NCBI RefSeq assembly: GCF_000012465.1
Contig: NC_007335.2
Span: forward strand, 1,230,001 to 1,262,000
Reading direction: 5' to 3'
DNA from: Prochlorococcus marinus str. NATL2A
Lineage (GTDB): Bacteria; Cyanobacteriota; Cyanobacteriia; PCC-6307; Cyanobiaceae
Length of the DNA stretch: 32,000 nt
Shown: positions 11,085 through 26,880 of the stretch, one piece after another
Numbering within the stretch: position 1 is the stretch's first letter
How the letters are laid out: each line of letters opens with the position of its first letter
Program-made: the position numbers and the translations under genes
The notes under the pieces: generated by a model
Databases searched by the model: none
Told to the model about the DNA's origin: nothing
What the model saw: the letters and a program-made list of their open reading frames with translations, nothing else

Positions 11085-12440
11085 ATGAGTTCCTCAGCGC
11101 CTACCTTTACTATAAAAAATATATCTGATTCATCTTTATCTAATATTTTTTCTAAAGAACTTGATATTTTTGGACTAAAGGTTTTTGCAACAAGTGGTAC
11201 TTCTGATGAAGATATTATTCATGCTGGAAAAATATACGCTGAATATTTAGATAATAACAAAGATGGCATAGTAGACGATTCATTAGTCCTAGAAAAAATG
11301 ATCGCAAGTAAGGCTGTTTTAGGTATGACTAAAGATCAAAATGAAACAGACTCGTTAGATTTTGCCAGTCTTGAAAATTTAGGTTATCAAGTTCAAGATC
11401 TAAACGGAGTAGAAACAATTCAAAATTCATCAGAAATCAATAAATTTGATGCAACTTTAGAAGAAGTACTTCATCTGATTACAGACTATGGATATGGTAT
11501 GGCTTATTCAGAAGCATTTGCAACAAATCAGTTTCAAGGTTCTTTCTCTATAAATAATTCCTCATTATTAACTGAAGCAATGGATACTGCAAGAGGAGGC
11601 AAATTTCTAACGATTCCAACCTCCTACCCCTCATCAGCTTGGTACACGTTTTACGATGATACGGCAGATTATTCTACTCAAGCAACAGAATATTTTTATT
11701 GGGGGCTTACTTCAATATTAGGAGCCCAAAATTTTCCTGGTAGATATGAAGAAATAAAATCAGAATGGAAGTTAAATACAGCAGAGAAAGTAAAGGAAAC
11801 TGATTCTAAATTATATAATTTATTAACAGACTCTAAATATTCATTACCAACTAATATTCCTGATGGTAATTACTCAATAATTAGCAATTTAAAAACTTAT
11901 AACGGGGCTTTTAATGAATACACTTTTATCAATCAAGGAAATGATCAATATGGAATCAAGTTAGATTCTTCTTCAACAATAGACTCTTTAACTGGTCTTT
12001 CCACAGTTAAGTTTTCAGATAAGTCGGTCGATATCAATAAAGATGTTATTGGTACATTCAATCAAGTTACAGGGAAAGATGATGTCACTGGACGTATGTT
12101 TCGCCTATACAACGCTGCCTTTGCTCGTTTCCCTGATGCCGATGGTCTCAAATATTGGATCGATAAAAACGCTTCTGGAGAAAATAGCAATCGGGTGGTA
12201 GCTCAATCCTTTTTAGCTTCTGCTGAATTCGCTGAGCGTTATGGCAGTAATGTGACCAATGAGAAGTACGTCGAAACTCTTTATACAAATGTTTTAGGTC
12301 GAAACTCAGATATAGCTGGTTACAACTACTGGGTAGGCAATCTTAATAATGGCATCGAAACTCGATATGAAGCTCTCCTAGGTTTTGCTGAGTCAACAGA
12401 AAATAAAACTCTCTTTAGTGAAGTCACAGGCATAAATTAA
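11085..12440 (+). CDS. DUF4214-tagged protein with unknown ~230-aa N-terminal domain
   Basis: 451-aa ORF. The C-terminus is YTFINQGNDQYGIKLD..LTGLSTVKFSDK + MFRLYNAAFARFPDADGLKYWI... + LYTNVLGRNSDIAGYNYWVGNLNNG...LLGFAESTENKTLFSEVTGIN. The N-terminal domain is alignable by eye with the middle of 18028..19893 (LDIFGLKVFATSG / LDVYGLRLFAHGA; LEEVLHLITDYG / LEHLLHTFTDFA). Confidence 0.85.
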   Translation: MSSSAPTFTIKNISDSSLSNIFSKELDIFGLKVFATSGTSDEDIIHAGKIYAEYLDNNKDGIVDDSLVLEKMIASKAVLGMTKDQNETDSLDFASLENLGYQVQDLNGVETIQNSSEINKFDATLEEVLHLITDYGYGMAYSEAFATNQFQGSFSINNSSLLTEAMDTARGGKFLTIPTSYPSSAWYTFYDDTADYSTQATEYFYWGLTSILGAQNFPGRYEEIKSEWKLNTAEKVKETDSKLYNLLTDSKYSLPTNIPDGNYSIISNLKTYNGAFNEYTFINQGNDQYGIKLDSSSTIDSLTGLSTVKFSDKSVDINKDVIGTFNQVTGKDDVTGRMFRLYNAAFARFPDADGLKYWIDKNASGENSNRVVAQSFLASAEFAERYGSNVTNEKYVETLYTNVLGRNSDIAGYNYWVGNLNNGIETRYEALLGFAESTENKTLFSEVTGIN

Positions 12441-12523
12441 GAACAACAGTGGTAGATATATAAAATCTAGACTATCTAGTATAAAATAAATTAATACAAA
12501 GATAGGTAATAAAAAAAGGTCTA

Positions 12524-14626
12524 ATGACTCATGAACTCCATAAACCTAAGCCGGTCGAACTCGATCAAGCAAAAAACGATGATGACTTAAAATATGTGCC
12601 TGTATGGCAAGGTTTAGGGGATCGTGAAACACCTCCAAAAGGGTCAGTTCAATATCAAGAGGTTCTTGAGGCATTAGGAAAAGATGCCGATGAAGAACTT
12701 GCAGAGGATTTTGATTACACAGATTATTTGGCTTCTACAGGGCAAATAGTCTTTTCAGAGGATGATCCACGAGCTCAAAAATATGCCGATAACGAAAACT
12801 ATCAAGCCGCAGCTAATAGCCAAGTAGCTGAGGCTTTTAAAGGCAATGCTGAAAGGGAGAAGGAGAGAGAAGCAGAACAAATTCGAATTGAAAAAGATAA
12901 GGACTTAAAATATGTGCCTGTATGGCAAGGCGAAGGTGATGTTACTCGTATAATACCTACAAAAGGTAGTAATGAATATCAAGAGATTCTTGAGGAATTA
13001 GGAAAAAACCCCGATGAAGAACTTTCAGAGGATTTTGATTACACAGATTATTTGGCTTCTACAGGGCAAATAGTCTTTTCAGAGGATGATCCACGAGCTC
13101 AAAAATATGCTGATAATGAAAACTATCAAGCCGCAGCTAATAGCCGAGTAGCTGAGGCTTTTAAAGGAAATGCTGAAAGAGAGAAGGAGAGAGAAGCAGA
13201 ACAACTACGAATTGAAAAAGATAAGGACTTAAAATATGTGCCTGTATGGCAAGGTTTAGGGGATCGTGAAACACCTCCAAAAGGGTCAGTTCAATATCAA
13301 GAGGTTCTTGAGGCATTAGGAAAAGATGCCGATGAAGAACTTGCAGAGGATTTTGATTACACAGATTATTTGGCTTCTACAGGGCAAATAGTCTTTTCAG
13401 AGGATGATCCACGAGCTCAAAAATATGCTGATAATGAAAACTATCAAGCCGCAGCTAATAGCCGAGTAGCTGAGGCTTTTAAAGGAAATGCTGAAAGAGA
13501 GAAGGAGAGAGAAGCAGAACAACTACGAATTGAAAAAGATAAGGACTTAAAATATGTGCCTGTATGGATTAGTCCGACTGAGGAACGTGAAGCACCTCCA
13601 AAAAATTCAACTCAATATATTGAGATTCTTGCGGAATTAGGAATTGAAGAACTTGAAGAGGATTTTGATTACACAGATTACTTGGCTTCAACAGGGCAAA
13701 TAGTTTTCGCAGATTACGATCCACGAGCTGAAAAGTATGCAGAGAACGAAAATTATCAAGCCGCAGCTAATAGCCGAGTAGCTGATGCTTTTCATGTCAA
13801 AGCCGAAAAAGAAAGGGGTAAATATATCGATCCTAACGGCGGTATAATAAAGGCAATCTATATAGAAACCCCTCCCAAAGACATCCCCATAGAAGGAACA
13901 GATGAGTATAAGCTTTTATTGTGGGAGATAGGAGTTGACCCTGATTCTGGAGTTATCCCAGAAGACTTTGATTATAAAGAACATATTGCTAAAACTCGCA
14001 GGCCAAAAGATTATCCAGATTGGCTCGATCCTGTAGAAGATATTGATGATCGTTGGGTTGATCCACTTAAACTCAATACATCTAAAACTTTTGAAAAAGA
14101 ATTTGAGGAATACCAATTCTTCAGAAGAAGTGATGGATCCTTCGAGATCAAAACAGAAGAAGGTTTTGATGACATAACTGGTATTCCCAAGCTTCAATTT
14201 GCTGATAAAGCTGTTAGTGCCATTGCTGAAATAGAAGCAACCTTTAATCAAGTCACAGCCAAAGAAGACCATACAGGTCAAATGTTCCGTCTGTATAACG
14301 CTGCCTTCAATCGATTTCCTGATTCTGATGGACTTGAGTACTGGATTGAAAAAAATGGATCAGGAGAAAACACTGAAAGACAAGTAGCAGAGTCATTCTT
14401 AGCATCTAATGAATTCAAAGGAAAATATGGAGAAAACATCTCAAATGAACAATATGTAAAAACTCTCTATCAAAATATTCTTGACCGAGAATCAGATACA
14501 GAGGGATATAACTATTGGGTTGGACAACTAAATAATGGAGTAGAAGATAGGAGTGAACTTCTTTTAGGGTTTGCTGAATCAGCTGAAAATAAATCACTCT
14601 TTACTGAAATGACTGGTTTTGAATAA
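12524..14626 (+). CDS. DUF4214-tagged protein with four tandem ~106-aa modules of unknown function
   Basis: 700-aa ORF. It has four copies of DLKYVPVW...PPKGS.QYQE.LE.LG...EDFDYTDYLASTGQIVFSEDDPRAQKYADNENYQAAANS...EREKEREAEQ, one degenerate copy, and then the constant C-terminal module ending LLGFAESAENKSLFTEMTGFE. Confidence 0.9.
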   Translation: MTHELHKPKPVELDQAKNDDDLKYVPVWQGLGDRETPPKGSVQYQEVLEALGKDADEELAEDFDYTDYLASTGQIVFSEDDPRAQKYADNENYQAAANSQVAEAFKGNAEREKEREAEQIRIEKDKDLKYVPVWQGEGDVTRIIPTKGSNEYQEILEELGKNPDEELSEDFDYTDYLASTGQIVFSEDDPRAQKYADNENYQAAANSRVAEAFKGNAEREKEREAEQLRIEKDKDLKYVPVWQGLGDRETPPKGSVQYQEVLEALGKDADEELAEDFDYTDYLASTGQIVFSEDDPRAQKYADNENYQAAANSRVAEAFKGNAEREKEREAEQLRIEKDKDLKYVPVWISPTEEREAPPKNSTQYIEILAELGIEELEEDFDYTDYLASTGQIVFADYDPRAEKYAENENYQAAANSRVADAFHVKAEKERGKYIDPNGGIIKAIYIETPPKDIPIEGTDEYKLLLWEIGVDPDSGVIPEDFDYKEHIAKTRRPKDYPDWLDPVEDIDDRWVDPLKLNTSKTFEKEFEEYQFFRRSDGSFEIKTEEGFDDITGIPKLQFADKAVSAIAEIEATFNQVTAKEDHTGQMFRLYNAAFNRFPDSDGLEYWIEKNGSGENTERQVAESFLASNEFKGKYGENISNEQYVKTLYQNILDRESDTEGYNYWVGQLNNGVEDRSELLLGFAESAENKSLFTEMTGFE
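12584..13810. repeat. 318/324/318-nt tandem coding repeats (4 copies, the first three nearly identical in long stretches)
   Basis: gacttaaaatatgtgcc recurs at 12584, 12902, 13226 and 13544. Long stretches of copies 1 and 3 are identical at the DNA level. Confidence 0.9.
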
Positions 14627-14948
14627 CCAATGAAAACCTTCTTGCTTCTTGCTCTACCAACGACATTTCTCTTTCCTACTCCATAACAACCTGACACCAA
14701 TCATTTTGGTGCAGGAGGAGTCTTCGAATTAGATCTAGATGACAGCGAAATACCTTTGATAGCTAAGCAAGAGAGAGAACAAAATTTATAAAAGAACAGT
14801 TGAACAAAAAAAAGAATAATTATTTAGCTCGGTTTTCTGATTAACTACATATGTCTACTATTGGGATTAGAAAGGAAAAAATATAATCAGAAAATTAAAG
14901 TCAGTTGAGTCGAAATTCTCTTATATTAATGATTAAAGCAACCTTAGA

Positions 14949-16352
14949 ATGTGCTTCATTTGCTCACAATCAGGAGGATTTGAAACAGATATTGCAACAG
15001 TTATCGGACTTGCAAAACATTCTAAGCTGTTGGTGAACAACACAGTCTCAAACGAAAATCAATCAAAGAATTATTTAACTAATCCTCAAAAATCAACTTC
15101 ATTTAAGCCAATAGATCCTAAATATCTGATTATGGGATACGCAGATGGACGAGATGAAATTGCTATTAGAAAAGAATATGCTGGAAGCAATAGGCAGATA
15201 AAAGTTTATTTATCAAATGGTGGAGATGAATTGATAGATATTAATCTTGGAGAATCTGAAAGAAAGAAATACTATTCATTAAAACCTGAAAATTGGCAAA
15301 AGTCATACGTAATTGATTCTCTTGAAAAAATAAATGAATTTATTGATATCGACTTAAAGCTAGTTAGTAAAAAAGATGAAGCTGACTATACAATTGTGAT
15401 ATCTCCTTTAGCCGATAATAACTTTCTCTCAGCAGACCCTGAAAGAGGGAAGAGTGGAAATGTACTGTCTGTAAGTTATCAATCTGGACTGTATACAACT
15501 GAAACTAATTTAGATGTCCTTGATCACACTGATTTCAGCAGAAAGATGCAAAAAGCAACTTTCGTTCATGAACTAGGACACTTACTTGGATTAGAGCACC
15601 CATTTGATTTGATTGATGATGATGTACTTGATCCGTATTATCCAGAAAACTTTTCCTATCTCAGGACTGAACCATTATTTCCTTATGAATTCACACTAAT
15701 GGGGTGGAATGGTAGCTATGTAGACAAAACGAGCTATGAAAATATTTGGTTCAGAAATGCCGATATTAAATCACTAGAAGTTATATGGGATAAATCAAAG
15801 GTTCAATCTTTTTCAGATAAGAGTTATGACTATAAGTTTTACAATCTAGGAAATGATAATTATGGAATCAAAGATGAATCTTCGGAAACGATAGACCCTC
15901 TCACCGGAATAGACCTTTTAAAATTTAATGATCAAAATTTAAATCTTATTAACGACATCAAAGCAACTTTCGATCAAGTCACAGGCTTAAATACAGACTC
16001 AGGGAAAATGTTCCGTCTATATAACGCCTCATTTAAACGTCTACCTGACCCTGATGGACTGCGTTATTGGATTGGTAATTTCAGCTCTGGTAAAGACGAC
16101 GAAAGAGCAGTGGCATCATCTTTTTTAGCCTCTGCTGAATTTAAACAACGTTATGGAGAAAACGTCTCGGATTCAACCTATGTGAATACTCTCTACAAAA
16201 ACGTTCTTGGTAGAGATGCTGATACTGGTGGATTGAATTATTGGTTAGGTCAACTTAATAGCGGAGCAGAAACTCGCTATGAGGTTCTTTTAGGTTTCTC
16301 TGAGTCAGCGGAAAACAAAGGACTGTTTACTGAAATGACTGGGTTCGGTTAA
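14949..16352 (+). CDS. Metzincin-type zinc metalloprotease fused to the DUF4214-type C-terminal module
   Basis: 467-aa ORF. HELGHLLGLEH (15567..15599) fits the HExxHxxGxxH metzincin zinc site. The C-terminus is YKFYNLGNDNYGIKDE..LTGIDLLKFNDQ + MFRLYNASFKRLPDPDGLRYWI... ending LLGFSESAENKGLFTEMTGFG. The start codon is uncertain and there is no signal peptide. Confidence 0.8.
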   Translation: MCFICSQSGGFETDIATVIGLAKHSKLLVNNTVSNENQSKNYLTNPQKSTSFKPIDPKYLIMGYADGRDEIAIRKEYAGSNRQIKVYLSNGGDELIDINLGESERKKYYSLKPENWQKSYVIDSLEKINEFIDIDLKLVSKKDEADYTIVISPLADNNFLSADPERGKSGNVLSVSYQSGLYTTETNLDVLDHTDFSRKMQKATFVHELGHLLGLEHPFDLIDDDVLDPYYPENFSYLRTEPLFPYEFTLMGWNGSYVDKTSYENIWFRNADIKSLEVIWDKSKVQSFSDKSYDYKFYNLGNDNYGIKDESSETIDPLTGIDLLKFNDQNLNLINDIKATFDQVTGLNTDSGKMFRLYNASFKRLPDPDGLRYWIGNFSSGKDDERAVASSFLASAEFKQRYGENVSDSTYVNTLYKNVLGRDADTGGLNYWLGQLNSGAETRYEVLLGFSESAENKGLFTEMTGFG

Positions 16353-16462
16353 AGAACACAACTTTTAGGTCACTTAAAAGACAAAAACACCCTATAAATT
16401 CATTAAAAGTTAGAACAACTTAAGCTGGACACTAAACTTACAGCAATCCTATCCATTTGTAG

Positions 16463-17032
16463 TCATACAAGATTTTTAACCTCCACTGCGTTTAGAAAAG
16501 CTTCATTTAATGGCTCTAAAGAGCTGTTAGTCCAATCAGATAGAGCACTTCTCATGCCACAAGACCCATTCCTATAGGCATCTGTCATTTCTAAACCTGT
16601 TAATACATGATTTCCCAAGAGGAGTTCAAAGACTAGTTCAGGTTGACTATCATAATTACCAAGGCAAGTAGATAATTCTGCTAAAGCATCTTCCATAGAT
16701 AGTTTCTTTTTTATCCGATATAAATCAAACAGTTCTTTAGCCACCTCACCATATTTTTTTGCTCCACTATCAGAAAAAATAGTATTACTTTGCGTCGAGT
16801 TTTCTTCTTTATCAGAATGGAAATTATCTTTTAAATTCAGCAGTTTTTCTATTCTTAAGAGTCTCTGTTCAAGGATATCAATATCACTGGTTGCTTGAAT
16901 AGAACTTCGTTCTAACAGCTCAGAAACAAAAGCTGTTAGCGTTTTCCCACTCTTTATTGCCTTAGCCTTCACTTTAAGCAGGAGTTGCGGATCAATCTTG
17001 ATATTCAACTGAGACTTGTCTTCACTCTTCAT
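16463..17032 (-). CDS. Ribbon-helix-helix (CopG/Arc/MetJ-like) domain protein with uncharacterised C-terminal domain
   Basis: 189-aa ORF. The N-terminus LNIKIDPQLLLKVKAKAIKSGKTLTAFVSELLERS has the beta-strand/helix/helix pattern of RHH DNA-binding proteins. I do not recognise the remainder. Confidence 0.6.
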   Translation of the reverse strand: MKSEDKSQLNIKIDPQLLLKVKAKAIKSGKTLTAFVSELLERSSIQATSDIDILEQRLLRIEKLLNLKDNFHSDKEENSTQSNTIFSDSGAKKYGEVAKELFDLYRIKKKLSMEDALAELSTCLGNYDSQPELVFELLLGNHVLTGLEMTDAYRNGSCGMRSALSDWTNSSLEPLNEAFLNAVEVKNLV

Positions 17033-17223
17033 CTTCTTTTTATATTTCTTCTAGTATATCTATATTTTCTCAATAAAAATCAATTCCTTCCAGTCAGGAT
17101 CAAATCATTTTCTATGATTTATCAATTAAGGACTTCGCCAACAAAACGTGCTTAAAAGCTAAAACAAAGTTAGAATAGAAGCCTATTGAGAATACTGAGA
17201 ATCATTGGTATAACTTAACTGCC

Positions 17224-17245
17224 ATACGTTGAATAAAAACTCCAT
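17224..17245 (+). repeat. Copy 1 of the ychF 3'-end core (att-like), 22/22 match
   Basis: atacgttgaataaaaactccat is identical to 24552..24573. Confidence 0.9.
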
Positions 17246-17488
17246 CCAGACAAGTCATAACAACTAATTACAGCTAAATTTTAGGGTTAGACCAAATCGC
17301 TAAAAGTTAGACGGTTGTGAGAAATCTTGATATACGACCAAGATCTAAAAGTGAACATGAGAAATATATTCGCTAGTTTCTTTAGCCTTAGATCAAATCA
17401 TTAAGTTGATAAGTTCTTAATATTTGTTGCCTATTAAACAAAGCTCAGCTAGAAAAAGTAACATCAAATACATTCTTGGCTTCGACCC

Positions 17489-17626
17489 ATGATCAATGAG
17501 AACCTTGTAGAGATCCTTCTCGCTGCGATTCTTATCTCAAATACCTATGACAAGGATCAGCCTGTAATTAAATGGGGTGGAATAGTAATAGCCGTTGCTG
17601 GGATAGCTTCAGCTTTATTTGGTTAA
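17489..17626 (+). CDS. Small hydrophobic protein (45 aa), hypothetical
   Basis: Below the track cut-off. The hand-translated product is MINENLVEILLAAILISNTYDKDQPVIKWGGIVIAVAGIASALFG, with two hydrophobic segments. A clean terminator follows at 17683..17707. It is the only ORF in the 0.6-kb unit between core copies 1 and 2. Confidence 0.4.
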   Translation: MINENLVEILLAAILISNTYDKDQPVIKWGGIVIAVAGIASALFG

Positions 17627-17682
17627 CAATTAAAGCCCTTTTATTTTGGAATAATTCAAATAAATCAAAATTCTTTATATGA

Positions 17683-17707
17683 GCTGCAATTTTTTGCAGC
17701 TTTTTTT
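17683..17707 (+). terminator. Rho-independent terminator
   Basis: gctgca-attttt-tgcagc hairpin followed by T7. Confidence 0.65.
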
Positions 17708-17852
17708 GTATTAAATAAAGCACCTATTCATAAATTTATAGCAACAGGTTAGAACGAAAATATTGAGTTACAGCAAAACACCAAAAAGTTAAAACAACGT
17801 CAGACAAGCGTATAGTCGGATCGCCGAGAATGATTAGTATTACTAGTCTGCT

Positions 17853-17871
17853 ATACGTTGAATAAAACTCC
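17853..17871 (+). repeat. Copy 2 of the ychF 3'-end core (one A missing from the A5 run)
   Basis: atacgttgaataaaactcc versus atacgttgaataaaaactcc. Confidence 0.85.
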
Positions 17872-17929
17872 TATATATCAAGTCATAACAACGTATTTGA
17901 ACGATAATTTAGGGTTAGACCAGTACAAC

Positions 17930-18027
17930 AAAAAGTTAGACCATCCATTTGACAGGTGAGAATCAGTTGACTCTTCTCTGAACTGGTGAGACCAATTTTT
18001 ATTTAAAAGTATTAGAGGTTTCTTTCT
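17930..18027. repeat. Conserved 3'-flank/arm segment, paralogous to 20075..20173
   Basis: aaaaagttagaccat..gacagg(t/c)gagaatcagt..actct.ctctga...ttttattt(a/g)aaagtattagaggtttctttcttca aligns by eye with the segment downstream of 20174..22015. The alignment includes the stop codon context. Confidence 0.85.
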
Positions 18028-19893
18028 TCAGCCGAAGCCAGTCATTTCAGTGAAGAGAGCTTTATTTTCCGCTGATTCTGCAAAACCTAGTAGGACTTCG
18101 TATCTGGTTTCGGCTCCATTTCTCAAGTTCCCTACCCAATAGTCATAACCACCCTGGTCAAGTTCTCTATTAAGGACATTTATGTATAAGGTCTTGACGT
18201 ATTGATTGTCAGTGACGTTTTCTCCATATCGCAATTTAAACTCCTCACTTACGAGAAATGAAGAGGCAACAGTTCTTATATCATTTGCACCTGAACTAAA
18301 TTGCTCAATCCAGTAGGAAAGGCCACTTGCATCAGGAAAACGTCTAAAGGCTGCATTATATAAACGAAACATCCTTCCTGAGTCAGTATTTAAGCCTGTT
18401 ATTTGATCAAAAACACCTTTTACATCGTCAATAAAATCTAATGTCTTATCAACGAATTGAAGCGAGAATGATGAAAGTCCAGTCGAGTTAAAAGTATCAC
18501 TACTTGGAAAAAATTCTGTTTGAACTTTTCGACCTGTAATCTCATCAAAACTATCTTTAGCTTTTATTTGATAGTTATTATTACCTTTATTAATAAAATC
18601 ATAATTAATACTTTCACCCTTGAAAAGTACTCCTGTATCCTTATTAATTATTTTGGTATTATCAGTACTAGGGCTGCTTACATTTGAGACATAACCTGAC
18701 ATCCCAGAATCGTCATCCTTATAGATCTCTTCTAATCTTACACTTTCCGGCTTAGATATTACTTTTCTTATGTAATCATTATATAGTTGATGACCTAAAG
18801 GATTGGCCTGTTTAATACTTTCTTCTGTTAGATATTGATCTGACCACTCAGGATCTAAACTATAATCTTCTGTATATTTTGTTGTATAGCCCCACATAGC
18901 ATATGTAAGACAATAGAGGTATTCTCGCATTACGACCGATTTATATACATCTTTATATTGAGGATGATTTTTTCCAATCATATGTTTGTAGTCTTTATCG
19001 TCATAGACACCATTATTTATAGCTTCATTAGCAGCATCCCAAAGCAATCCTTTCCCTTGAAAAGTATTAAATTGTTCAGGGAAGGCACCTGGCAAGGCAA
19101 AGTCAGTGAAAGTATGAAGTAAGTGCTCTAGTTGTTGTGTTATTTGATACCTTTGAATAGGTGTGTGATTTAATTTCCAAGTGTAATCATTAGAATTATA
19201 TAAATCATTTATTTCATCATAGCCTTTAGGTCCGTCATTTAAACTTGGATTCTGATAGGCACTATGTGTATTAATTCCAATTCTTTGGATTGTACTTTTA
19301 GATTTCATATATTGAAGAGCTTTTTCTTGTGCTTCTTTATCGATAAACTCTCCATTTGGATTAAACATCAATTTAACTGTTTCAGCGGTTTTTTTGATGA
19401 ACTCATCGTCTACAGCGGGTAGTCCACTAAGAGCTCCATGTGCAAATAGTCTTAATCCATAAACATCAAGGTATTTTTCCCAAACTCCAAATGTTTCATT
19501 TGTAGAAACAACATCTCCACTTGCATAAGAGCTATTAATTTTCTGCAAAGAATTTCCCATAAAGGAATGATTCTTGCATTGATAAAACAACTTAATTGAA
19601 GTTTCAGCAGGAAGAGTTATCTCCGTATAAGCTCCTTCAGAGCCGGCGATACCACTATTAATTACATTGCTATTGAAGGTGCTTAATTTTTCTGAATCCT
19701 TATAAAATAATATTTGATGACCAAGATTACTAATATCGGATTGATCAAATCTATAAGTAACACCAGAGAGTAAGCTTAAACTTGGTGACTCTATTCCATT
19801 AATAAAATAGCCTTTTGCAGAACCTTTATTGCTATAAATATGATTGCTTGTTTTGAGATTTACAGTTACTACTTTATTGACTACCTTTGGCAT
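18028..19893 (-). CDS. DUF4214-tagged protein with N-terminal cupredoxin-like domain and the unknown ~230-aa domain shared with 11085..12440
   Basis: 621-aa ORF. H59 ... FYQC106KNH109SFM112G matches the amicyanin-style type-1 copper pattern H...C-x2-H-x2-M. The C-terminus is YDFINKGNNNYQIKAKDSFDEITG...LQFVDK + MFRLYNAAFRRFPDASGLSYWI... ending LLGFAESAENKALFTEMTGFG. Confidence 0.85.
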   Translation of the reverse strand: MPKVVNKVVTVNLKTSNHIYSNKGSAKGYFINGIESPSLSLLSGVTYRFDQSDISNLGHQILFYKDSEKLSTFNSNVINSGIAGSEGAYTEITLPAETSIKLFYQCKNHSFMGNSLQKINSSYASGDVVSTNETFGVWEKYLDVYGLRLFAHGALSGLPAVDDEFIKKTAETVKLMFNPNGEFIDKEAQEKALQYMKSKSTIQRIGINTHSAYQNPSLNDGPKGYDEINDLYNSNDYTWKLNHTPIQRYQITQQLEHLLHTFTDFALPGAFPEQFNTFQGKGLLWDAANEAINNGVYDDKDYKHMIGKNHPQYKDVYKSVVMREYLYCLTYAMWGYTTKYTEDYSLDPEWSDQYLTEESIKQANPLGHQLYNDYIRKVISKPESVRLEEIYKDDDSGMSGYVSNVSSPSTDNTKIINKDTGVLFKGESINYDFINKGNNNYQIKAKDSFDEITGRKVQTEFFPSSDTFNSTGLSSFSLQFVDKTLDFIDDVKGVFDQITGLNTDSGRMFRLYNAAFRRFPDASGLSYWIEQFSSGANDIRTVASSFLVSEEFKLRYGENVTDNQYVKTLYINVLNRELDQGGYDYWVGNLRNGAETRYEVLLGFAESAENKALFTEMTGFG

Positions 19894-20074
19894 TTAGAAA
19901 TAAAAACTTATTCTAGATTAGTTATTGAAATTTTGTGTTTGCATATCATTAAGCGTTTTTTCTACTCAAAAAATTGTTTTAAGCAAAACATGAGACAAAG
20001 TTGACCTAGTCGTAATTGGACTCTTAAGACCAAACCGTCTCAAAACTAACCATTTCGTCTCATAAGGTTAGACA

Positions 20075-20173
20075 AAAAGGTTAGACCATTTCTGCGACAG
20101 GCGAGAATCAGTCAACTCTACTCTGACCTCTTTTGAACCAAGTTTTATTTGAAAGTATTAGAGGTTTCTTTCT
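20075..20173. repeat. Conserved 3'-flank/arm segment, paralogous to 17930..18027
   Basis: See 17930..18027. Confidence 0.85.
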
Positions 20174-22015
20174 TCAGCCTAAGCCAGTCATATCAGTAAA
20201 GAGAGTTTTATTCTCTGCTGATTCTGCAAACCCTAATAGAAGTTCACTTCTATCCTCTACGCCATTATTAAGTTGTCCAACCCAGTAGTCATATCCCTCT
20301 GCATCTGGTTCTCGATCAAGAATATTTTGATAAAGCGTTTTTACATATTGTTCATTTGAGACATTTTCTCCATATTTTTCTTTGAATTCAGAGGAGGCTA
20401 AAAATGATTCTGCTACTTGCCTTTCAGTATTTTCTCCTGATCCATTTTTTTCAATCCAGTACTCAAGTCCATCAGAATCAGGGAACCGATTAAAGGCAGC
20501 GTTATAGACGCGAAACATCTTTCCTGTGACATCATCTTTTGCTTTGACTTGATCAAAGGTTGCTTCTATTTCAGCAATGGCACTCACTGCTTTATCGGCA
20601 AATTGAAGTTTTGGGATACCAGTGATTTCATCAAAACCTTCTTCTGTTTTGATTTCAATGGATCCATCACTTCTTCTGAAGAACTCATATTCTTCTAATT
20701 CTTTTTCAAAAGTTTTAGATGTATTCAGTTTAGTTGGATCTACCCAACGATCATCAATATCGACTACTGGGTCGAGCCAATCTGGATAATCTTTTGGTCT
20801 ACGAGTGGCGGCTATATGACCTTTATAGTTAAACCCTTCAGGAATTGCAGAACCAATCTCTTTTTCTATTAATTCATATTCTTTGGTTCCTTCTTTAGGC
20901 ATCTCTAAAGGAGCATTCAGTAAATAAACTGGCGATATTGTGTTGCCTAACGCATCTGTCCCTTCATAAATAAGTGATTTAGTTTCTTCCTCTTTAGTTA
21001 TCGTCGAGTCTCCATCGATAATATTGGGCATGTATAAAAGATTATCCTGATTAGTTCTGTTGCCTGCATATCCAGCAGTATCGGCATATTTCGCTGATCG
21101 TGGATCATCATCCGCGAATAGAACTTGTCCGGTTGCAGCCATATGGGCTTCATAATCAAATCCGTCATTAGCTGCTGCACCATCTGTTTGCTCTAAAAGT
21201 TGTTGATAGCCAAGTGTTCCTTTTAAGGGTGCAATTAATTCTCCTCCACTTTTTACTTCAGCAATAAATACTGGAAGCATTGGATCTTTTAGATCTGATT
21301 CTGGGATTGCATTTGGTCTATATAAAAGATCATCTTGATTAGCTCTGTTGCCTGCATATCCAGCAGTATCGGCATATTTTGCTGATCGTGGATCATCATC
21401 CGCAAATAGAACTTGTCCGGTTGCAGCCATATGAGCTTCATAATCAAATCCGTCATTAGCTGCTGCACCATCTGTTTGCTCTAAAAGTTGTTGATAGCCA
21501 AGTGTTCCTTTTGGGGGTGCAATTAATTCTCCTCCACTTTTTACTTCAGCAATAAATACTGGAAGCATTGGATCTTTTATTCTGATTCCCTCAATTGAAT
21601 CAGGAGTAGAAGTTGAATCTGAAGTGGGAGTTGGATCTGGAGTGGGAGTTGGATCTGGAGTGGGAGTTGGATCTGGAGTGGAAGTTGGATCTGGAGTGGA
21701 TGAAGATTCCTCTATGTTGGGCATGTATAACAGGTCATCTTGATTAGCTCTGTTACCTGCATATCCAGGAGCATCGGCATATTCAGCTGATCGTGGATCA
21801 TCATCTGCAAATAAAACTTGTCCGGTTGCAGCCATATGAGCTTCATAATCAAATCCTTCATTAGCTGCTGCACCACCTGTTTGCTCTAAAAGTTGTTGAT
21901 AGCCAAGTGTTCCTTTTGGGGGTGCAATTAATTCTCCTCCACTTTTTACTTCAGCAATAAATACTGGAAGCATTGGGTCTTTTGCTTTTGGAGAAGAGAT
22001 ATTTTCGTTGGTCAT
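20174..22015 (-). CDS. DUF4214-tagged protein with three tandem ~96-aa modules; inverted paralogue of 12524..14626
   Basis: 613-aa ORF. It has three copies of KDPMLPVFIAEVKSGGELIAPPKGTLGYQQLLEQT.GAAAN(E/D)GFDYEAHMAATGQVLFADDDPRSA.YAD, and a (T/S)PDP linker after the first copy. The last ~220 aa are nearly identical to the C-terminus of 12524..14626. Confidence 0.9.
   Translation of the reverse strand: MTNENISSPKAKDPMLPVFIAEVKSGGELIAPPKGTLGYQQLLEQTGGAAANEGFDYEAHMAATGQVLFADDDPRSAEYADAPGYAGNRANQDDLLYMPNIEESSSTPDPTSTPDPTPTPDPTPTPDPTPTSDSTSTPDSIEGIRIKDPMLPVFIAEVKSGGELIAPPKGTLGYQQLLEQTDGAAANDGFDYEAHMAATGQVLFADDDPRSAKYADTAGYAGNRANQDDLLYRPNAIPESDLKDPMLPVFIAEVKSGGELIAPLKGTLGYQQLLEQTDGAAANDGFDYEAHMAATGQVLFADDDPRSAKYADTAGYAGNRTNQDNLLYMPNIIDGDSTITKEEETKSLIYEGTDALGNTISPVYLLNAPLEMPKEGTKEYELIEKEIGSAIPEGFNYKGHIAATRRPKDYPDWLDPVVDIDDRWVDPTKLNTSKTFEKELEEYEFFRRSDGSIEIKTEEGFDEITGIPKLQFADKAVSAIAEIEATFDQVKAKDDVTGKMFRVYNAAFNRFPDSDGLEYWIEKNGSGENTERQVAESFLASSEFKEKYGENVSNEQYVKTLYQNILDREPDAEGYDYWVGQLNNGVEDRSELLLGFAESAENKTLFTDMTGLG
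20990..21990. repeat. 288-nt tandem coding repeats (3 copies; the third is offset by a TPDP-coding 12-nt microrepeat at about 21601..21700)
   Basis: gggtgcaattaattctcctccactttttacttcagcaataaatactggaagcattgg recurs at 21227, 21515 and 21920. Confidence 0.85.
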
Positions 22016-22329
22016 TCTTTATTTGAACCTTGTCATGTATAAAGAAACTTCTAACTTACTAGATAATTTATACGATCTATCTAACTGATTAAGGATCGTT
22101 AATCAGTGGAAAATAATAATTATGAAAGTCTGGCAGGTAACAAAATGACAATTTCTAACCTGTATGAGAAGTGTAAGGAAAGTGTTATCGAATAAACCTG
22201 CCACCCAACACTTGACTCTTAAGCCCAGCTTGTCTCAAAAACCGAGTTTTTCGTCTCAAAAAGTTAGACTAAACGGTTAGACCAAAGGTTAGTCTAACCT
22301 CTGAAAACCTTTGGTATGACTAACTTTCT

Positions 22330-22349
22330 ATACGTTGAATAAAAACTCC
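22330..22349 (+). repeat. Copy 3 of the ychF 3'-end core, 20/20 match
   Basis: atacgttgaataaaaactcc. The preceding t and the following t.a.cgtc also resemble the ychF context. Confidence 0.9.
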
Positions 22350-22543
22350 TTAGCGTCCAGTTATACCAGTTGATTACGAGCAAAAATCAGGGTTAGACGT
22401 AAGTTAGAAGAGTAGAACGAAGTTAGAATTCAGCAGTAAAGGGTGACTACTGGGAAGAGTCATGCAAGATTCACAATCATAGAAACCTTACTCGTTTAAC
22501 TTTAAAATCGAACTTCTCATCTTGGGATATACTTTATAGACAA

Positions 22544-22572
22544 GCTAGCCAGTGAAAAAGCTAGTGTTTTTT
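22544..22572 (+). terminator. Terminator-like hairpin plus T6, 11 nt upstream of the TTG start of 22584..24431
   Basis: gctagc-cagtgaaaaa-gctagt (one G-U pair) followed by g-tttttt. Confidence 0.4.
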
Positions 22573-22583
22573 GGGGTTAATCA

Positions 22584-24431
22584 TTGGCAACTTTTACTTG
22601 GACTGCGAAAGGAAATCAAGGTGCTACTTATGATGGGACTTTCCCAAGTCATTACAAGAAAGCTCAAGACAATTATTACGCGGGAAATCTAACGGTACTC
22701 TCTGAGAGTTTATTAGCTAATGGAAAGATTTCCTATTATATTTCTGGTAATTACAATTTAGATCTTGACTATAAAAATGTCAAATATAATGAACAAACAG
22801 GAACTATTTCTTATAATGGATACACTTTCGAATTAAAACAATATGGGAATCATATTGGCACTGGCGAAGCAGATGGCTATTTTGTTGAAAATCTATATGA
22901 TTTAAGCACAATTGGCTACCTGAATAAAGACAAGACATACTATTCAGAGACGGGAGTTGAAGAAGTAATAACCGGCACATTTGACTATGAAAAAATAGGC
23001 GAAAGTTTAAGCTCTCAAAGGACATATTATATAAGTGGAGATGATACATTTAATGGGAGTAAGAAAGATGATAAATTATATTCAGGGCTTGGAAACGATA
23101 TTATTTATGGGAACGAAGGTAATGATACGTTAAAAGGTGAATCAGGCTCAGATATCATTAAAGGAGGTGATGGCTTTGATAATATTTATGGAGGAACAGG
23201 AAATGATAGTCTCCACGGTAATGATGGCAATGATTATATTGATGGAGGCAGTGGTACTGATGTTGCCAATTATGAAGGAAACTTCAGCGACTATTCTTTT
23301 GTACAAGATGGTTCAAATTTAAAAGTTATTGATAACAGAATCGGCAAAGACAAATGGACTGACACTCTTGTATCAATCGAATTATTAGATTTCTTAGATA
23401 AAAAGTCAGTAACTCCTGTCAATGCACAAACCCTGCAAAATTCTGCTCAAGTTAATACTAGTCCTGACAATACATCTACCACTAATAGTGATACGTCTAA
23501 TTCAAACAACCTATCAAATCCAAACAATGCAACTTCAAGAGAATTACAACAACTATACATAGCTTATTTTAGTCGACCTAGTGACCCTTCAGGTTTAAAT
23601 TACTGGACAGAAAAGGGGATTAGTAGAAGTGCTTTCGCTGCCAATATGTACTTACAACCGGAATTTAAAGATGTAAATGGAAACCTATCTGTAGAAGCCC
23701 AAGTCAATCAAATCTATTTAAATTTATTTAATCGATCAGGTGATGTAGCCGGACTAACCTATTGGTCAAATCAAATAAATAATGGTTCCTTGCAACTTGC
23801 ATCGATTGCTAATGATCTTATTTGGGCAGCTGAAAACAATCCGGGAGGTTCTAGCGATTCAAAAACTCTTACTAATAAAACTGAAGCTGCAATTGCCTAT
23901 ACAGCAAAGCTCTCTTCGACTACTTCAGGAATACTTTCTTATCAACCTCAATCAACGAGTCCTTGGATTTCAGGCAAAATTTTCGAAGAGGCTAAATCTT
24001 TCATCTCGGAAATAAATCAATACACTACACATACTTCATCGAGTATTGAAAATAGTATTAGTAGGTTTGACAGCCTATCTTCATCAAGCAACTTCAAACT
24101 TTTAATTGATCCAAAGTTGAACAAAACAGACACAATCACTGGGATAGGCGTTCAAACTACAGAGACTAAAGCTTTTGAAGATACTTTTAGTGGACTGAAT
24201 TTAAACTCATCAGATCTCTTTGAAAACCACTCATCGCAAGATACAGATCACCATGATTTCGTATCTCATTTACATGAAGAAGTTCTTGATAGAAAGCCTG
24301 ATTCTATTGGCATGAACTATTGGCAAGGTCAACTTAATAGCGGAGCTGAAACTCGATACGAAATTCTTCTTGGTTTCTCTGACTCAAACGAGAACTTAGG
24401 ACTCTTTACTGAGATGACAGGGTTGGGCTAA
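22584..24431 (+). CDS. RTX (hemolysin-type Ca-binding) repeat protein with an internal DUF4214-like domain and a truncated C-terminal tag
   Basis: 615-aa ORF. TTG is the first possible start after an in-frame TAA, and there is no in-frame ATG for more than 150 codons. Nonapeptide run: GNDIIYGNEGNDTLKGESGSDIIKGGDGFDNIYGGTGNDSLHGNDGNDYIDGGSGTD. Internal domain: LQQLYIAYFSRPSDPSGLNYW. The C-terminus is only the second half repeat, VLDRKPDSIGMNYWQGQLNSGAETRYEILLGFSDSNENLGLFTEMTGLG. Confidence 0.8.
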   Translation: MATFTWTAKGNQGATYDGTFPSHYKKAQDNYYAGNLTVLSESLLANGKISYYISGNYNLDLDYKNVKYNEQTGTISYNGYTFELKQYGNHIGTGEADGYFVENLYDLSTIGYLNKDKTYYSETGVEEVITGTFDYEKIGESLSSQRTYYISGDDTFNGSKKDDKLYSGLGNDIIYGNEGNDTLKGESGSDIIKGGDGFDNIYGGTGNDSLHGNDGNDYIDGGSGTDVANYEGNFSDYSFVQDGSNLKVIDNRIGKDKWTDTLVSIELLDFLDKKSVTPVNAQTLQNSAQVNTSPDNTSTTNSDTSNSNNLSNPNNATSRELQQLYIAYFSRPSDPSGLNYWTEKGISRSAFAANMYLQPEFKDVNGNLSVEAQVNQIYLNLFNRSGDVAGLTYWSNQINNGSLQLASIANDLIWAAENNPGGSSDSKTLTNKTEAAIAYTAKLSSTTSGILSYQPQSTSPWISGKIFEEAKSFISEINQYTTHTSSSIENSISRFDSLSSSSNFKLLIDPKLNKTDTITGIGVQTTETKAFEDTFSGLNLNSSDLFENHSSQDTDHHDFVSHLHEEVLDRKPDSIGMNYWQGQLNSGAETRYEILLGFSDSNENLGLFTEMTGLG

Positions 24432-24549
24432 ATAACAAAACTTACAAGTCACTCAAAAGACAAAACACTCATTATAAATTTAATACAAAGTTAGAACAAA
24501 GTTAGAATAGCCATAAAAGTCGCTGAAAACCCGTGGTATGACTGGACGC

Positions 24550-25641
24550 TTATACGTTGAATAAAAACTCCATTACGTCTCCTTCATTCACTATATATTC
24601 TTTGCCTTCACTTCTTAGCCAACCTTTGTTTTTAGCTTCTACTAAAGATCCTGCTTCTAGTAGTTTTTTGTATGAGATTGTTTGAGCTCGAATAAATCCC
24701 TTTTCAAAATCTGTATGTATTACCCCAGCAGCTTGAGGAGCTGTCATCCCATCAGAAATAGTCCAAGCTTTAGTTTCTTTTTCTCCAGTGGTGAAATAAG
24801 TGCTTAAGCCCAGCAATCGATATGTAGCTTTAATAAGACTAATTAAGCCTCCTTCTTCAACTCCTAAACCATTTAAATAATCATCTCTTTCCTCCTCCCC
24901 CAATTCAATCAACTCAGCCTCAACTTGCGCTGAAATCTTCACACATTCAGAGCCTTCTTTCGTTGCAAGTGTATTTACTTCTTCTGAAAAGGAATTACCT
25001 TTCGCAAGTTCATCTTCACCAAGATTGGTTGCATAGATAATTGGTTTTTCAGTTAATAAGCCTAATGGTTTAATTAATTTTTTTTCTTCATTAGTTAATG
25101 AAACACTCCTAACTGCATTTTCATTTTCTAAGGCCTCGCTTAATTTTTCTAATACATCATCTTCTAACTTTGCGTCCTTACTAGTACTTATTTGTTTTTT
25201 TAGTCGAGTTCTACGTTTTTCTATCTGATTTAAATCAGACAATGCTAATTCTAAATTTATTATCTCAATATCTCTTGATGGGTCTACTGATCCAGAAACA
25301 TGAATAACATCATCATCACTAAAACACCTAATCACATGAACGATTGCATCCACCTCCCTTATATTTGCTAAAAATTTGTTACCCAATCCCTCCCCTTTAC
25401 TTGCTCCCTTAACAAGACCAGCAATATCAACAAACTCCATTCTCGTTGGAATAATTTGCTTACTATTACTAAGTTCGCCAAGCAAATTCAAACGTTGATC
25501 AGGGACTGAAACAGAGCCTACATTCGGTTCAATCGTACAAAAAGGAAAGTTTGCTGCTTGAGCTTGAGCATTCGCAACAAGAGCATTGAACAAAGTGGAC
25601 TTTCCAACATTAGGGAGTCCAACAATTCCGGCCTTAAGCAT
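24550..25641 (-). CDS. ychF: Ribosome-binding/redox-regulated ATPase YchF
   Basis: 363 aa. P-loop [17 protein letters not shown]; C-terminal YchF/TGS block [33 protein letters not shown]. Confidence 0.95.
24552..24573 (+). repeat. Copy 4 (genuine) of the core: last seven codons plus the first stop-codon base of ychF
   Basis: The complement encodes M-E-F-L-F-N-V-stop, the end of the 363-aa YchF ORF. Confidence 0.95.
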
Positions 25642-25806: not shown

Positions 25807-26880
25807 ATGATTTGGAAAAAATTTAAAAAGAAAAAATTTATAGGCCTTATTGCACTTTCGGTCATAAGTGTTGGCGGAATTAGTTTTAAACTTTCACAAG
25901 ACAACTCATCGAATAAAGACATAACTGAATTTACAATTGCTGCTGAGAGAGGCAGTTTGCCTGGTTTGATAACAGCAAGTGGTGAATTAAAAGCAAATAA
26001 AAGTGTAAATGTAAGCCCAAAAAGACAGGGAATACTTGACGAAATTTTCGTTGAGGAAGGAGATCAGGTTAAGAAAGGTGATTTAATTGCGAAAATGGAT
26101 TTTGGAGATTTGGAATTTAGAATTGACGAGATAAAAGCTAATTATGAGACTCAAAAAGCAAGCTTTAAAAGAAGGGAGATGCTTTTTAATGAAGGAGCCA
26201 TAAGTGCTGAAGAGTATGAAGAATATAAAAATAAATTTTTAAAAAGCAAAGCCAGATTCAAACAACTAGAAGTAGAAGAGAATGAAATAAGCATTAGAGC
26301 CCCATTTAGAGGAGTAATAACCAGCAGATACGCAGTACCAGGGGCATTCGTAACTCCTACGACCTCTGCTTCTTCCTCAAGAGAGGGTGGGGCCACAAGT
26401 TCATCAATAGTCAAACTTTCTCAAGGCCTTGAAATAGTCGCGAAAGTTCCTGAGAGTGATATTGGAAGAATAAAAACAGGGCAGGACGCAAGTATTAGAG
26501 TAGATGCTTTTCCTGATAAGCGTTTTAAAGCGGTTGTCTCCAAAATCTCTCCAAGTGCGATCAAGAATAACAACGTAACTTCATTTGAAGTTACGTTGTT
26601 ATTGGAAAATAGACCTGAAGATTTACGCCTTGGCATGACATCTGATATAAACTTTCAAACTGGAGCGACCAAAATCAGCACGCTTATTCCAACAGTCGCA
26701 ATTGTCACAGAAGAAGGGAAAACTGGGGTTCTAATAGTCGGGAATAACAATCAACCAGAGTTTAAAAAAGTTGAATTAGGTACAAGCAGTGGCAGTAAGA
26801 CTGCAATAATATCTGGATTAGAACCGGGAGAGAAAGTTTTTATTGATCTTCCTTCTTGGGCTAAAAAAAGAGAGCGTTAA
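25807..26880 (+). CDS. Efflux/secretion membrane-fusion (periplasmic adaptor) protein, HlyD/MacA/DevB type
   Basis: 357 aa. N-terminal membrane anchor (FIGLIALSVISVGG), lipoyl-like GDQVKKGDLIAKMD, coiled coil (EIKANYETQKASFKRREMLFNEGAISAEEYEEYKNKFLKSKARFKQLE), IRAPFRGVIT and C-terminal beta-barrel-like segments. Confidence 0.85.
   Translation: MIWKKFKKKKFIGLIALSVISVGGISFKLSQDNSSNKDITEFTIAAERGSLPGLITASGELKANKSVNVSPKRQGILDEIFVEEGDQVKKGDLIAKMDFGDLEFRIDEIKANYETQKASFKRREMLFNEGAISAEEYEEYKNKFLKSKARFKQLEVEENEISIRAPFRGVITSRYAVPGAFVTPTTSASSSREGGATSSSIVKLSQGLEIVAKVPESDIGRIKTGQDASIRVDAFPDKRFKAVVSKISPSAIKNNNVTSFEVTLLLENRPEDLRLGMTSDINFQTGATKISTLIPTVAIVTEEGKTGVLIVGNNNQPEFKKVELGTSSGSKTAIISGLEPGEKVFIDLPSWAKKRER

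Follow-up and report, generated by a model that had tools for sequence, protein, structure and literature searches.

Genomic islands of Prochlorococcus are reportedly anchored on tRNA genes, as set out by Coleman et al. in 2006. The preprint that describes tycheposons in this genus (Hackl et al., bioRxiv 10.1101/2020.12.28.424599) gives, in the parts of its text drawn on here, seven integration sites, all of them tRNA or tmRNA genes, and places islands 'usually' next to a tRNA. According to the same parts, these islands grow by one site-specific insertion after another at a conserved gene's 3′ end, retain copies of that target end between insertions, have their older insertions pushed inward by newer ones and carry flexible niche and cell-surface genes. 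A pattern of serial insertion at one site, with target-end copies in between and inward displacement of older material, is also found in the locus described here, an array of small gene cassettes between psbA and ychF in Prochlorococcus marinus str. NATL2A (NCBI RefSeq contig NC_007335.2, positions 1,230,001 to 1,262,000; this whole stretch of 32,000 nucleotides is referred to as the window), in which the repeated sequence is the end of the protein-coding gene ychF.

Four further systems are close enough to be compared with it. The staphylococcal cassette chromosome (SCC) islands, including SCCmec, use an attB that overlaps the 3′ end of rlmH (orfX) and is regenerated at each insertion. Gene-end direct repeats separate tandem SCC elements, with inverted repeats just inside them, and many elements, including the ccr-less pseudo-SCC, have no recombinase of their own and depend on one in trans; the islands are typically tens of kb long and their large serine recombinases, CcrAB and CcrC, are known and present in some elements. 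The cis-mobilisable elements (CIMEs) of streptococci, for example in the ICESt1/CIME family, are integrase-less, flanked by att sites, mobilisable in trans and accrete at one attB, and they derive from and coexist with a cognate integrative and conjugative element (ICE) that encodes the integrase. In the integrative mobile elements exploiting Xer (IMEX) and in pdif modules, a host-encoded recombinase (Xer) services small cargo modules. Finally, integrons and clusters of attC sites lacking integron-integrases (CALINs) hold tiny, mostly single-gene cassettes, each with one site, with polar insertion at one anchor and a recombinase encoded outside the cassettes; an integron has a gene for the tyrosine recombinase IntI with attI and the promoter Pc next to it, which may be lacking in a CALIN, and the attC sites are imperfect palindromes of the form R″-L″...L′-R′ (RYYYAAC...GTTRRRY), conserved in structure and not in sequence, and their cassettes are mostly promoterless and co-oriented.

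The core of the repeat in the window is the 20-mer ATACGTTGAATAAAAACTCC, found exactly at 17224-17243, 22330-22349 and 24552-24571, always on the plus strand, whilst shuffled sequence holds a mean of 0.01 matches and reached three in 0/100 shuffles. Extended by AT to a 22-mer it is exact at 17224 and 24552, and a fourth copy (17853-17871) has 19 nt, with one A missing; all four share one orientation. The copy at 24552-24573 is the reverse complement of ATG GAG TTT TTA TTC AAC GTA T, that is MEFLFNV and the first stop base of ychF, a gene 96% identical to ychF of the Prochlorococcus single-amplified genome (SAG) AG-402-K04; the window is that of a low-light Prochlorococcus of LLI type. Neither a tRNA or tmRNA (ARAGORN) nor an Rfam family was found in the window. 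A first-pass annotation of this DNA had reported the extra copies of the ychF end, contexts shared on both sides of them, the genes lying between consecutive cores and the lack of any recombinase open reading frame (ORF) in the 32 kb. The copies hold up against shuffling and the genes are as it listed them, and both contexts are present, the left one as GTTAGA(A/C)...TGGTAT(G/A)ACT, with TAGTATTACT at copy 2, and the right one as CAAGTCATAACAAC...GGTTAGACC...GTTAGAC, weaker at copy 3.

The same array is present in all eight LLI-type genomes sampled (the window strain, L001, L097, L098, L099, L129, L132, which is MIT1011, and L133) and on 17 metagenome contigs, the loci of relatives having been reached by a ychF scan, with at least three Prochlorococcus loci among the matches listed, and then through homologs of ychF and of a 189-aa protein encoded in the array. 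Repeat units are always co-oriented and lie between gene modules, with 2-9 units per locus and cassettes of 0.6-3.7 kb that hold one to three genes; the metagenome contigs have two or three units each (cassettes of 0.63-3.7 kb, one to three genes). The ychF-psbA interval is hypervariable in every one of these genomes, and in 8/8 of them the ychF-proximal unit is an exact half unit that ends in ychF coding sequence. Where strains share their ychF-proximal cassette, colinearity stops ~30 nt past the next core, L097 and L099 being 96% identical through an ATP-grasp cassette and L001 and L098 94% identical through a metallophosphoesterase cassette; the check on breakpoints proposed with the first-pass annotation thus places the limits of the variable regions at core units, as it had anticipated. 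Cassettes also change rank. In L001 and L098 the metallophosphoesterase cassette adjoins ychF, in L129 and L123 it is interior, and each time cores flank it; the cassette of a 45-aa ORF, which in the window is enclosed by cores 1 and 2, adjoins psbA in L097, L098, L099 and L132. Unit scores (nhmmer bits) fall with distance from ychF, from 115 through 66, 78, 78, 16, 25 and 18 to 17 in L098 and from 117 through 100, 87, 98 and 29 to 7.5 in L097, and the array is therefore polar, with the newest cassettes next to ychF.

The strongest evidence on how the cassettes were joined comes from the arms on either side of the core, which occur in distinct types. Left arms are of type A (AAAGTTAGAACAAAGTTAGAATAG..ATAAAAATCGCTGAAAACC), A2 (..CTATTGAGAATACTGAGAAC) or B (GTCTCAAAAA..CGTCTCAAAAAGTTAGAC..GGTTAGACC..GTCTAACC), and right arms of type X (GGTTAGACCAGTACAACAAAATGTTAGACCATTTTTGAGAC..GAGAC), Y (GGTTAGACGTAAGTTAGAAGAGTAGAACGAAGTTAGAA) or the further subtypes Z and W. 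If whole units had been copied, the two arms of one unit should match, and if exchange took place by crossover in the core, the arms that flank one cargo should match and units should be hybrids. Within cassettes X goes with B seven times and never with A or A2, and Y goes with A or A2 eleven times and never with B (Fisher p=3e-5; 3e-4 counting identical cargos once), whereas across the core left and right arm types are independent (p=0.66). Cassettes are thus discrete modules joined by exchange in the core, which is the pattern expected of P-core-P′ circles recombining with a P-core-B′ site at ychF. The 8 nt to the right of the core still track the right-arm type (TATACATC with X, TTAGCGTC or ATAACGTC with Y, NTKCAGAC with Z) and the 9 nt to its left track the left-arm type, so the linkage switch lies within the 18-nt ACGTTGAATAAAAACTCC.

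The unit around this exchange point is a conserved, recombination-site-like stretch of ~200 bp. An inverted repeat of 10-15 bp that was missing from the first-pass annotation, TGGTATGACT(GGACG)/(CGTCC)AGTCATACCA, brackets the core, its half-sites lying 8-9 nt from it, 37 nt apart and ~47 bp from centre to centre. Direct GTTAGA(A/C) heptads occur in both arms, often at an 11-13-nt spacing that would fit cooperative binding on one face of the DNA, and are candidate arm-type or accessory-protein sites. On the plus strand of the window this heptad has 17 copies, 16 of them intergenic within 16409-24501, against ~5 expected, and GTTAGAC alone has 11 against 2.1 expected, a number reached in 0/100 shuffles. 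The X/B cassette family has additional outer inverted GAGAC/GTCTC pairs, and with its inner and outer inverted repeats the unit is quasi-palindromic. In an alignment of 36 non-ychF units, from five genomes and the 17 metagenome contigs, conserved blocks alternate with drifting spacers: the majority fraction is 0.87 for the left GTTAGA, 0.80 for CTGAGAAC, 0.80 for the left inverted repeat TTGGTATGACT, 0.94 for the core TATACGTTGAATAAAAACTCC and 0.86 for the right inverted repeat AGTCATACCAA (the last two values inflated by the retrieval pattern for 17 units), 0.94 for GGTTAGAC on the right, and 0.51-0.68 for the spacers. The two inverted halves are complementary (78.1% of cells paired, against 22-40% when slid). 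The first-pass annotation had named covariation, as evidence for a family of non-coding RNAs (ncRNAs) or terminators, as something that would speak against its reading; none was seen beyond column shuffles (78.1% against 76.5% paired), and variable positions are mismatched in half of the units. Single-strand folding gives z of about +0.5 for units 1 and 3 (+0.49 to +0.78) and -2.3 for unit 2, in a fold that leaves the two inverted halves unpaired. Because covariation is lacking, and folding is unremarkable in units 1 and 3 and does not pair the halves in unit 2, the inverted repeat looks like a pair of protein half-sites and not like a selected hairpin.

Genes for a recombinase are absent locally. 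By Pfam and NCBIfam, none of the window's sizeable ORFs has a recombinase domain, in line with the first-pass annotation, and no such domain was found in ~100 kb of related islands, within 10 kb of ychF or of the 189-aa gene in the eight genomes, or in 20 ORFs adjoining metagenomic units. The 11 ychF-proximal and hence newest cassettes (0.8-3.7 kb) have none, and no integrase fragment was seen in the ~40 cassettes sampled. An origin as the attP of a phage or satellite was also considered and is rejected: IMG/VR gave no match for the exact 20-mer, the 18-mer, the core with its right arm or three arm patterns, a pattern of the inverted repeat only gave 12 unrelated chance hits there, and blastn of two units against 50,697 phage genomes had no match. 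The att site of P-SS2 is unrelated.

Taken together, we hold it to be reasonably probable that the array grew as modules were inserted site-specifically, one after another, at an attB that overlaps the 3′ end of ychF, by an enzyme supplied in trans. The psbA-ychF interval of LLI-type Prochlorococcus would then be an accretion array, in which small circular modules, each with one to three cargo genes and one attP-like unit of ~200-250 bp, insert site-specifically into an attB spanning the last seven codons of ychF, with the crossover falling inside the 18-nt window defined above. The incoming element would supply a new ychF end and shift older modules toward psbA, and each interior unit would become a hybrid of the older cassette, which contributes the left (P) arm, and the newer one, which contributes the right (P′) arm. 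As no cassette carries a recombinase, the enzyme would have to come in trans, from a gene elsewhere on the chromosome or on a rare helper element. We infer from this absence a putative, dedicated site-specific recombinase that would act in trans on circular cassettes and make them mobile. By analogy, the long site identity and arm repeats recall heterobivalent tyrosine integrases, and the ~47-bp spacing of the half-sites together with the gene-end target recalls large-serine systems such as SCCmec.

Several observations weigh against serial insertion by such an enzyme. No recombinase was identified in the window, in the island flanks of the eight genomes or on the metagenome contigs. No circular junction was seen, nor any within-strain excision or empty/occupied variant, and the same-strain assemblies (L081-L096) share one architecture, with no cassette gained or lost and only differences in in-gene repeat copies. 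Interior units decay and can lose their cores, and many of them may be inert scars, not active sites. The spacing of the half-sites is unlike the classic core geometry of tyrosine recombinases. The core and inverted repeat form the longest conserved stretch, where RecA crossovers could mimic the linkage pattern, and their apparent conservation is raised by the fact that 17 of the 36 aligned units were retrieved by a pattern holding part of the core and of the right inverted repeat.

An alternative that takes the decay at face value is that the modules are relics of integrase-bearing elements, tycheposon- or prophage-like, which inserted at the ychF 3′ end and lost their integrases by streamlining, the units being scars and present change homologous. 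The fall in unit scores with distance from ychF and the core-less fusions described below, which show that units are dispensable, both agree with this, and for the tRNA-anchored islands of the genus the tycheposon preprint, as far as it is drawn on here, describes elements in decay and repeats of part of the target gene. We nevertheless regard it as unlikely, since not even a fragment of an integrase remains in the ~40 cassettes, the ychF-proximal ones included, many single-gene cassettes of 0.6-1.4 kb have P′ and P arms that are complete and match, small cassettes reappear in other genomes and at other ranks with their limits unchanged, and core and arms are absent from IMG/VR contigs and phage genomes.

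It is less probable still that no site-specific enzyme was involved and that foreign DNA was taken up and exchanged by RecA double crossover, with ychF and the ~200-bp units as portable homology; the result would be a flexible island of the additive or replacement type. In its favour, units share 70-85% identity over >130 bp with a near-perfect centre of 18-50 bp, homologous recombination would also favour a linkage switch at the most conserved stretch, and no recombinase was found in the stretches sampled. Yet it leaves unexplained why the repeat is precisely the ychF end, why units are strictly co-oriented and polar, why short motifs (half-sites, GTTAGA heptads, GAGAC pairs) are conserved amid drifting spacers and why the ends of two cassette families are matched; in addition, 18-21 bp of identity does not exceed the length that RecA usually needs for efficient exchange. 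Least probable, and largely refuted, is that the unit is a self-propagating or duplicated non-coding element, whether like a miniature inverted-repeat transposable element (MITE), a terminator or insulator or an ncRNA gene, with an incidental likeness to ychF, for even though the unit is quasi-palindromic and one arm hairpin scores as terminator-like, its arms are independent within units and tightly linked across cargo, the opposite of whole-unit copying, it occurs in one orientation and only in the island in all loci examined, it is exactly half a unit beside ychF in 8/8 genomes, and the lack of compensatory covariation, of an Rfam match and of notable folding in units 1 and 3 leads us to reject a hairpin or ncRNA.

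With serial insertion by an enzyme in trans kept as the preferred account, the locus can be set against the systems introduced above. The features of an accretion array are there: the direct repeats at junctions are the attB core, in one orientation and with the proximal copy overlapping the target gene, and element-specific arms lie on both sides of the core with hybrid junctions from core crossover. It resembles tycheposon islands in genus and in the manner of growth, and differs from what the cited parts of the preprint describe in that its target is protein-coding ychF and not a tRNA or tmRNA, no tRNA being present in the window, that its modules measure 0.6-3.7 kb with the hallmark deep-branching tyrosine recombinase and replication or packaging genes in none of ~40 cassettes, and that its site has long arms of GTTAGA heptads, which did not turn up in text searches of the preprint. 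By structural analogy the array most resembles the SCC composite islands at rlmH with their recombinase-less pseudo-elements, with which it shares an attB at the end of a housekeeping gene, direct repeats of that end between elements, inverted repeats near them and elements that lack a recombinase; its modules are far smaller, periodic arm repeats occur only here, and phylum and cargo are unrelated. Like CIMEs, its modules are integrase-less, flanked by att-like sites and accreted at one attB, but no cognate integrase-bearing element was seen beside the array in the loci sampled. Unlike Xer-serviced modules, the core and its flanks hold, by inspection, no dif-like 28-bp site (two 11-bp inverted arms and a 6-bp spacer), the half-sites being 37 nt apart, and unlike MITEs the units have independent arms, one orientation and a distribution confined to the island across the loci examined.

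The first-pass annotation had called the array integron-like, of which the functional parallel stands and the structural one does not. The tiny, mostly single-gene cassettes with one site each, polar insertion at one anchor and the lack of a recombinase inside the cassettes are shared with integrons and CALINs, and GTTAGAC happens to fit the integron core-site consensus GTTRRRY. Reading it as part of an attC is rejected on three grounds: its repeats are direct, with GTCTAAC the order GTTAGAC...GTCTAAC is the reverse of R″...R′, and the centre, being the ychF end, is conserved in sequence (0.94). Units show no covariation, array genes lie in both orientations in place of co-oriented, mostly promoterless cassettes, interior sites decay, unlike the attC sites of an active integron, and neither intI nor attI was found in the window or within the limited flanks sampled (10 kb of ychF or of the 189-aa gene, eight genomes). 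On the features tested the array fits none of the tycheposon, integron and Xer-module families. A search of the literature for an island anchored on ychF returned nothing, the tycheposon preprint included so far as its text was covered and its final journal version lying outside the search.

The features of the array in the window and the positions of units in related loci are collected in Table 1. Three of them had escaped the first-pass annotation: two core-less fused units and the partial unit at 17713-17783 in cassette 1. In the fused unit at 20042..20129, positions 20042-20088 resemble 22238-22284 at 81% (D18) and 20075-20129 resemble 17930-17984 at 80% (D16), and its centre was presumably lost by deletion between direct GTTAGACC repeats. 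The other, at 16395-16440, comes after a conserved DUF4214 3′ flank and was compared with the right arm of unit L123_1391 (D5, D14). We interpret both junctions as deletions between direct heptads, which would explain the two-gene 'cassette' at 17872-22329, probably two fused cassettes, and would suggest that the gene at 14949..16352 is probably an older cassette whose unit has lost its core; no unit remnant was detected in the window to the left of that gene.

Table 1. Features of the ychF-anchored array in the window, followed by the positions of units in related loci
Feature	Position	Strand	Details
DUF4214/metallopeptidase-like gene	14949..16352	+	Pfam; 3′ flank common to 24277-24465 (D5)
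Second core-less fused unit	16395..16440	+	fusion of a type-A arm's first GTTAGAAC with the distal end of a type-Y right arm (AAAGTTAGAACAACTTAAGCTGGA)
189-aa gene	16463..17032	-	ribbon-helix-helix (RHH)-like N-terminus and all-alpha C-terminal domain; no Pfam/NCBIfam match
Unit 1	17150..17320	+	nhmmer hit 17166-17302, E=6e-33; type-A2 left arm; left inverted repeat TGGTATAACT 17206-17215; core 17224-17245; right inverted repeat AGTCATAACA 17253-17262; type-Z right arm (GGTTAGACCAAATCGCTAAAAGTTAGAC)
Cassette 1	17246..17852	+	45-codon ORF 17489..17626 (+); terminator-like hairpin 17681-17702; partial unit 17713-17783
Unit 2	17740..17990	+	nhmmer hit 17796-17931, E=4.8e-30; degenerate left arm; left inverted repeat TAGTATTACT 17835-17844; core 17853-17871, one A missing; right inverted repeat AGTCATAACA 17881-17890; type-X right arm (GGTTAGACCAGTACAACAAAAAGTTAGACC...GAGAC)
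Cassette 2, X...B type	17872..22329	-	genes 18028..19893 (-) and 20174..22015 (-), both DUF4214 (Pfam)
Core-less fused unit	20042..20129	+	start of a type-B left arm joined straight to the end of a type-X right arm; centre of inverted repeats and core absent
Unit 3	22220..22430	+	nhmmer hit 22274-22409, E=2e-34; type-B left arm (GTCTCAAAAA..CGTCTCAAAAAGTTAGAC..GGTTAGACC..GTCTAACC); left inverted repeat 22312-22321; core 22330-22349; right inverted repeat AGTTATACCA 22359-22368; type-Y right arm (GGTTAGACGTAAGTTAGAAGAGTAGAACGAAGTTAGAA)
Cassette 3, Y...A type	22350..24551	+	one gene 22584..24431 (+), RTX/DUF4214, 615 aa; Pfam HemolysinCabind and DUF4214
Unit 4, attR-like P-core-B′	24476..24573	+	nhmmer hit 24498-24579, E=7.6e-17, model positions 2-86 only; type-A left arm, GTTAGAAC/GTTAGAAT at 24490 and 24501; left inverted repeat TGGTATGACT 24534-24543; core 24552-24573 over the ychF end
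ychF, anchor gene	24550..25641	-	363 aa; Pfam YchF-GTPase_C 8e-36, MMR_HSR1 2e-22
L097 units	1789 (ychF), 5527, 7789, 8632, 9807		also a decayed unit at 12928
L098 units	828 (ychF), 3505, 6968, 8835, 10700		also four decayed units
L099 units	5040 (ychF), 8775, 9768
L001 units	11071 (ychF), 13749, about 14850
L129 units	2426, 5116
L132 (MIT1011) units			four units
L133 units			two units

The right side of unit 4 is ychF coding sequence, and a homolog of the gene in cassette 3 occurs in a different unit context in L119. The hairpin of cassette 1, a strong terminator-like structure (GAGCTGCAATTTTTTGCAGCTT followed by a T-run) 3′ of the 45-codon ORF, is conserved with that ORF in other strains, for which reason the ORF is probably a real gene, for a membrane peptide; it is conserved at the protein level, and a decayed unit lies beside its copy in L098.

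Among relatives outside the LLI-type group, whose ychF is 75-80% identical, the ychF end of the genome itself is not repeated. One clade with an 80%-identical ychF has a weak likeness to a type-B arm 3′ of ychF (L134, 11063..11143; TTTAGAC...TTCTAAC; nhmmer E=0.001), again with no repeat of the ychF end, and this stretch could be a vestigial or an ancestral site. In MIT1011 the ATP-grasp/alpha-E operon that forms the ychF-proximal cassette of L097 and L099 lies beyond psbA (L132, 18706..21092) and not in the ychF-psbA interval, and no unit was detectable next to it.

The 189-aa protein with the RHH-like N-terminus was considered as the recombinase or a dedicated cofactor and rejected in this role. 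It belongs to no Pfam or NCBIfam family and has a weak HicB-like match in PHROG (E=0.014), and its AlphaFold2 model (mean pLDDT 75) gave no significant fold match in the PDB, RHH-type hits to Arc, AtaR and NikA being insignificant. Elsewhere its gene forms a Y...A2 cassette, with units on both sides in L098, L113 and L123. A 61%-identical homolog lies at 10001..10555 in L130/L131, in another context with many small ORFs, where there is no ychF core and essentially no GTTAGA motif, so that the family is wider than the array, and the gene is absent from the ychF-psbA interval of MIT1011; because of these two loci it is not obligatorily linked to the array. That the protein may bind the heptads is speculation.

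Cargo is unrelated between cassettes in the LLI-type genomes and metagenome contigs. It comprises an ATP-grasp/alpha-E/transglutaminase operon, a CobW-like gene with two metallophosphoesterases, TPR-sulfotransferases and glycosyltransferases, FkbM methyltransferases, a pilin, a T2SSE ATPase, YHYH, an M48 peptidase and DUF4214/RTX proteins, and is dominated by genes of the surface, secretion and glycosylation (DUF4214/RTX, pilins, T2SSE ATPase, TPR-glycosyltransferases and FkbM methyltransferases); both strands carry cassette genes, in the window as well as in L097. Pfam finds a C-terminal DUF4214 domain in 4/5 of the genes named in the first-pass annotation, and seven island genes (window 3746..24431) end in this same domain (...GFAESxENKxLFTEMTGFG), those on the plus strand sharing ~70 nt of 3′ flank that runs into the type-A arm. 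An HlyD-family membrane-fusion gene (25807..26880) lies just past ychF, and its presence with the DUF4214 genes hints at a link to type I secretion. Tandem repeats of ~290-320 nt inside two DUF4214 genes, 12524..14626 and 20174..22015, differ in copy number among same-strain assemblies (L088-L092), giving proteins of 700 against 698/462/356 aa and 613 against 418/322 aa, which could be real variation or assembly collapse. At the other end of the island, psbA (2579..3661) is flanked by giant repeat-protein genes at 3..2249 (-) and 3746..8377 (-), both with ALTTAQ-type repeats ('GFGKDQVAAFDPTAMA') and the latter also with PPMGGGG repeats, an RTX motif and a DUF4214 end; GC around them is 40-49%, against ~33% elsewhere.

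How Prochlorococcus islands acquire genes is a long-standing question, which tycheposons answer for the tRNA-anchored ones. The ychF locus is a non-tRNA island that is equally ordered, polar and bounded by sites, whose much smaller modules encode no recombinase, and it offers a concrete and testable site with an 18-nt crossover window, defined half-sites and heptad repeats. Tentatively, and with some doubt on our part, LLI Prochlorococcus may harbour an undescribed cassette platform, parallel to integrons in function but unrelated to them, in which a recombinase encoded on the chromosome or on a helper element, and working only in trans, would take up single-gene circles at ychF, each with a composite site of ~200-250 bp, and release them again. 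Genes for surface, secretion and glycosylation functions are thought to shape interactions with phages and grazers, and if such a platform exists it would be a dedicated route for shuffling genes for cell-surface and secreted proteins in a streamlined genome without plasmids or conjugation. Should an enzyme indeed act in trans on single-gene circles, one of the planet's most abundant organisms would possess a new system of cassette capture.

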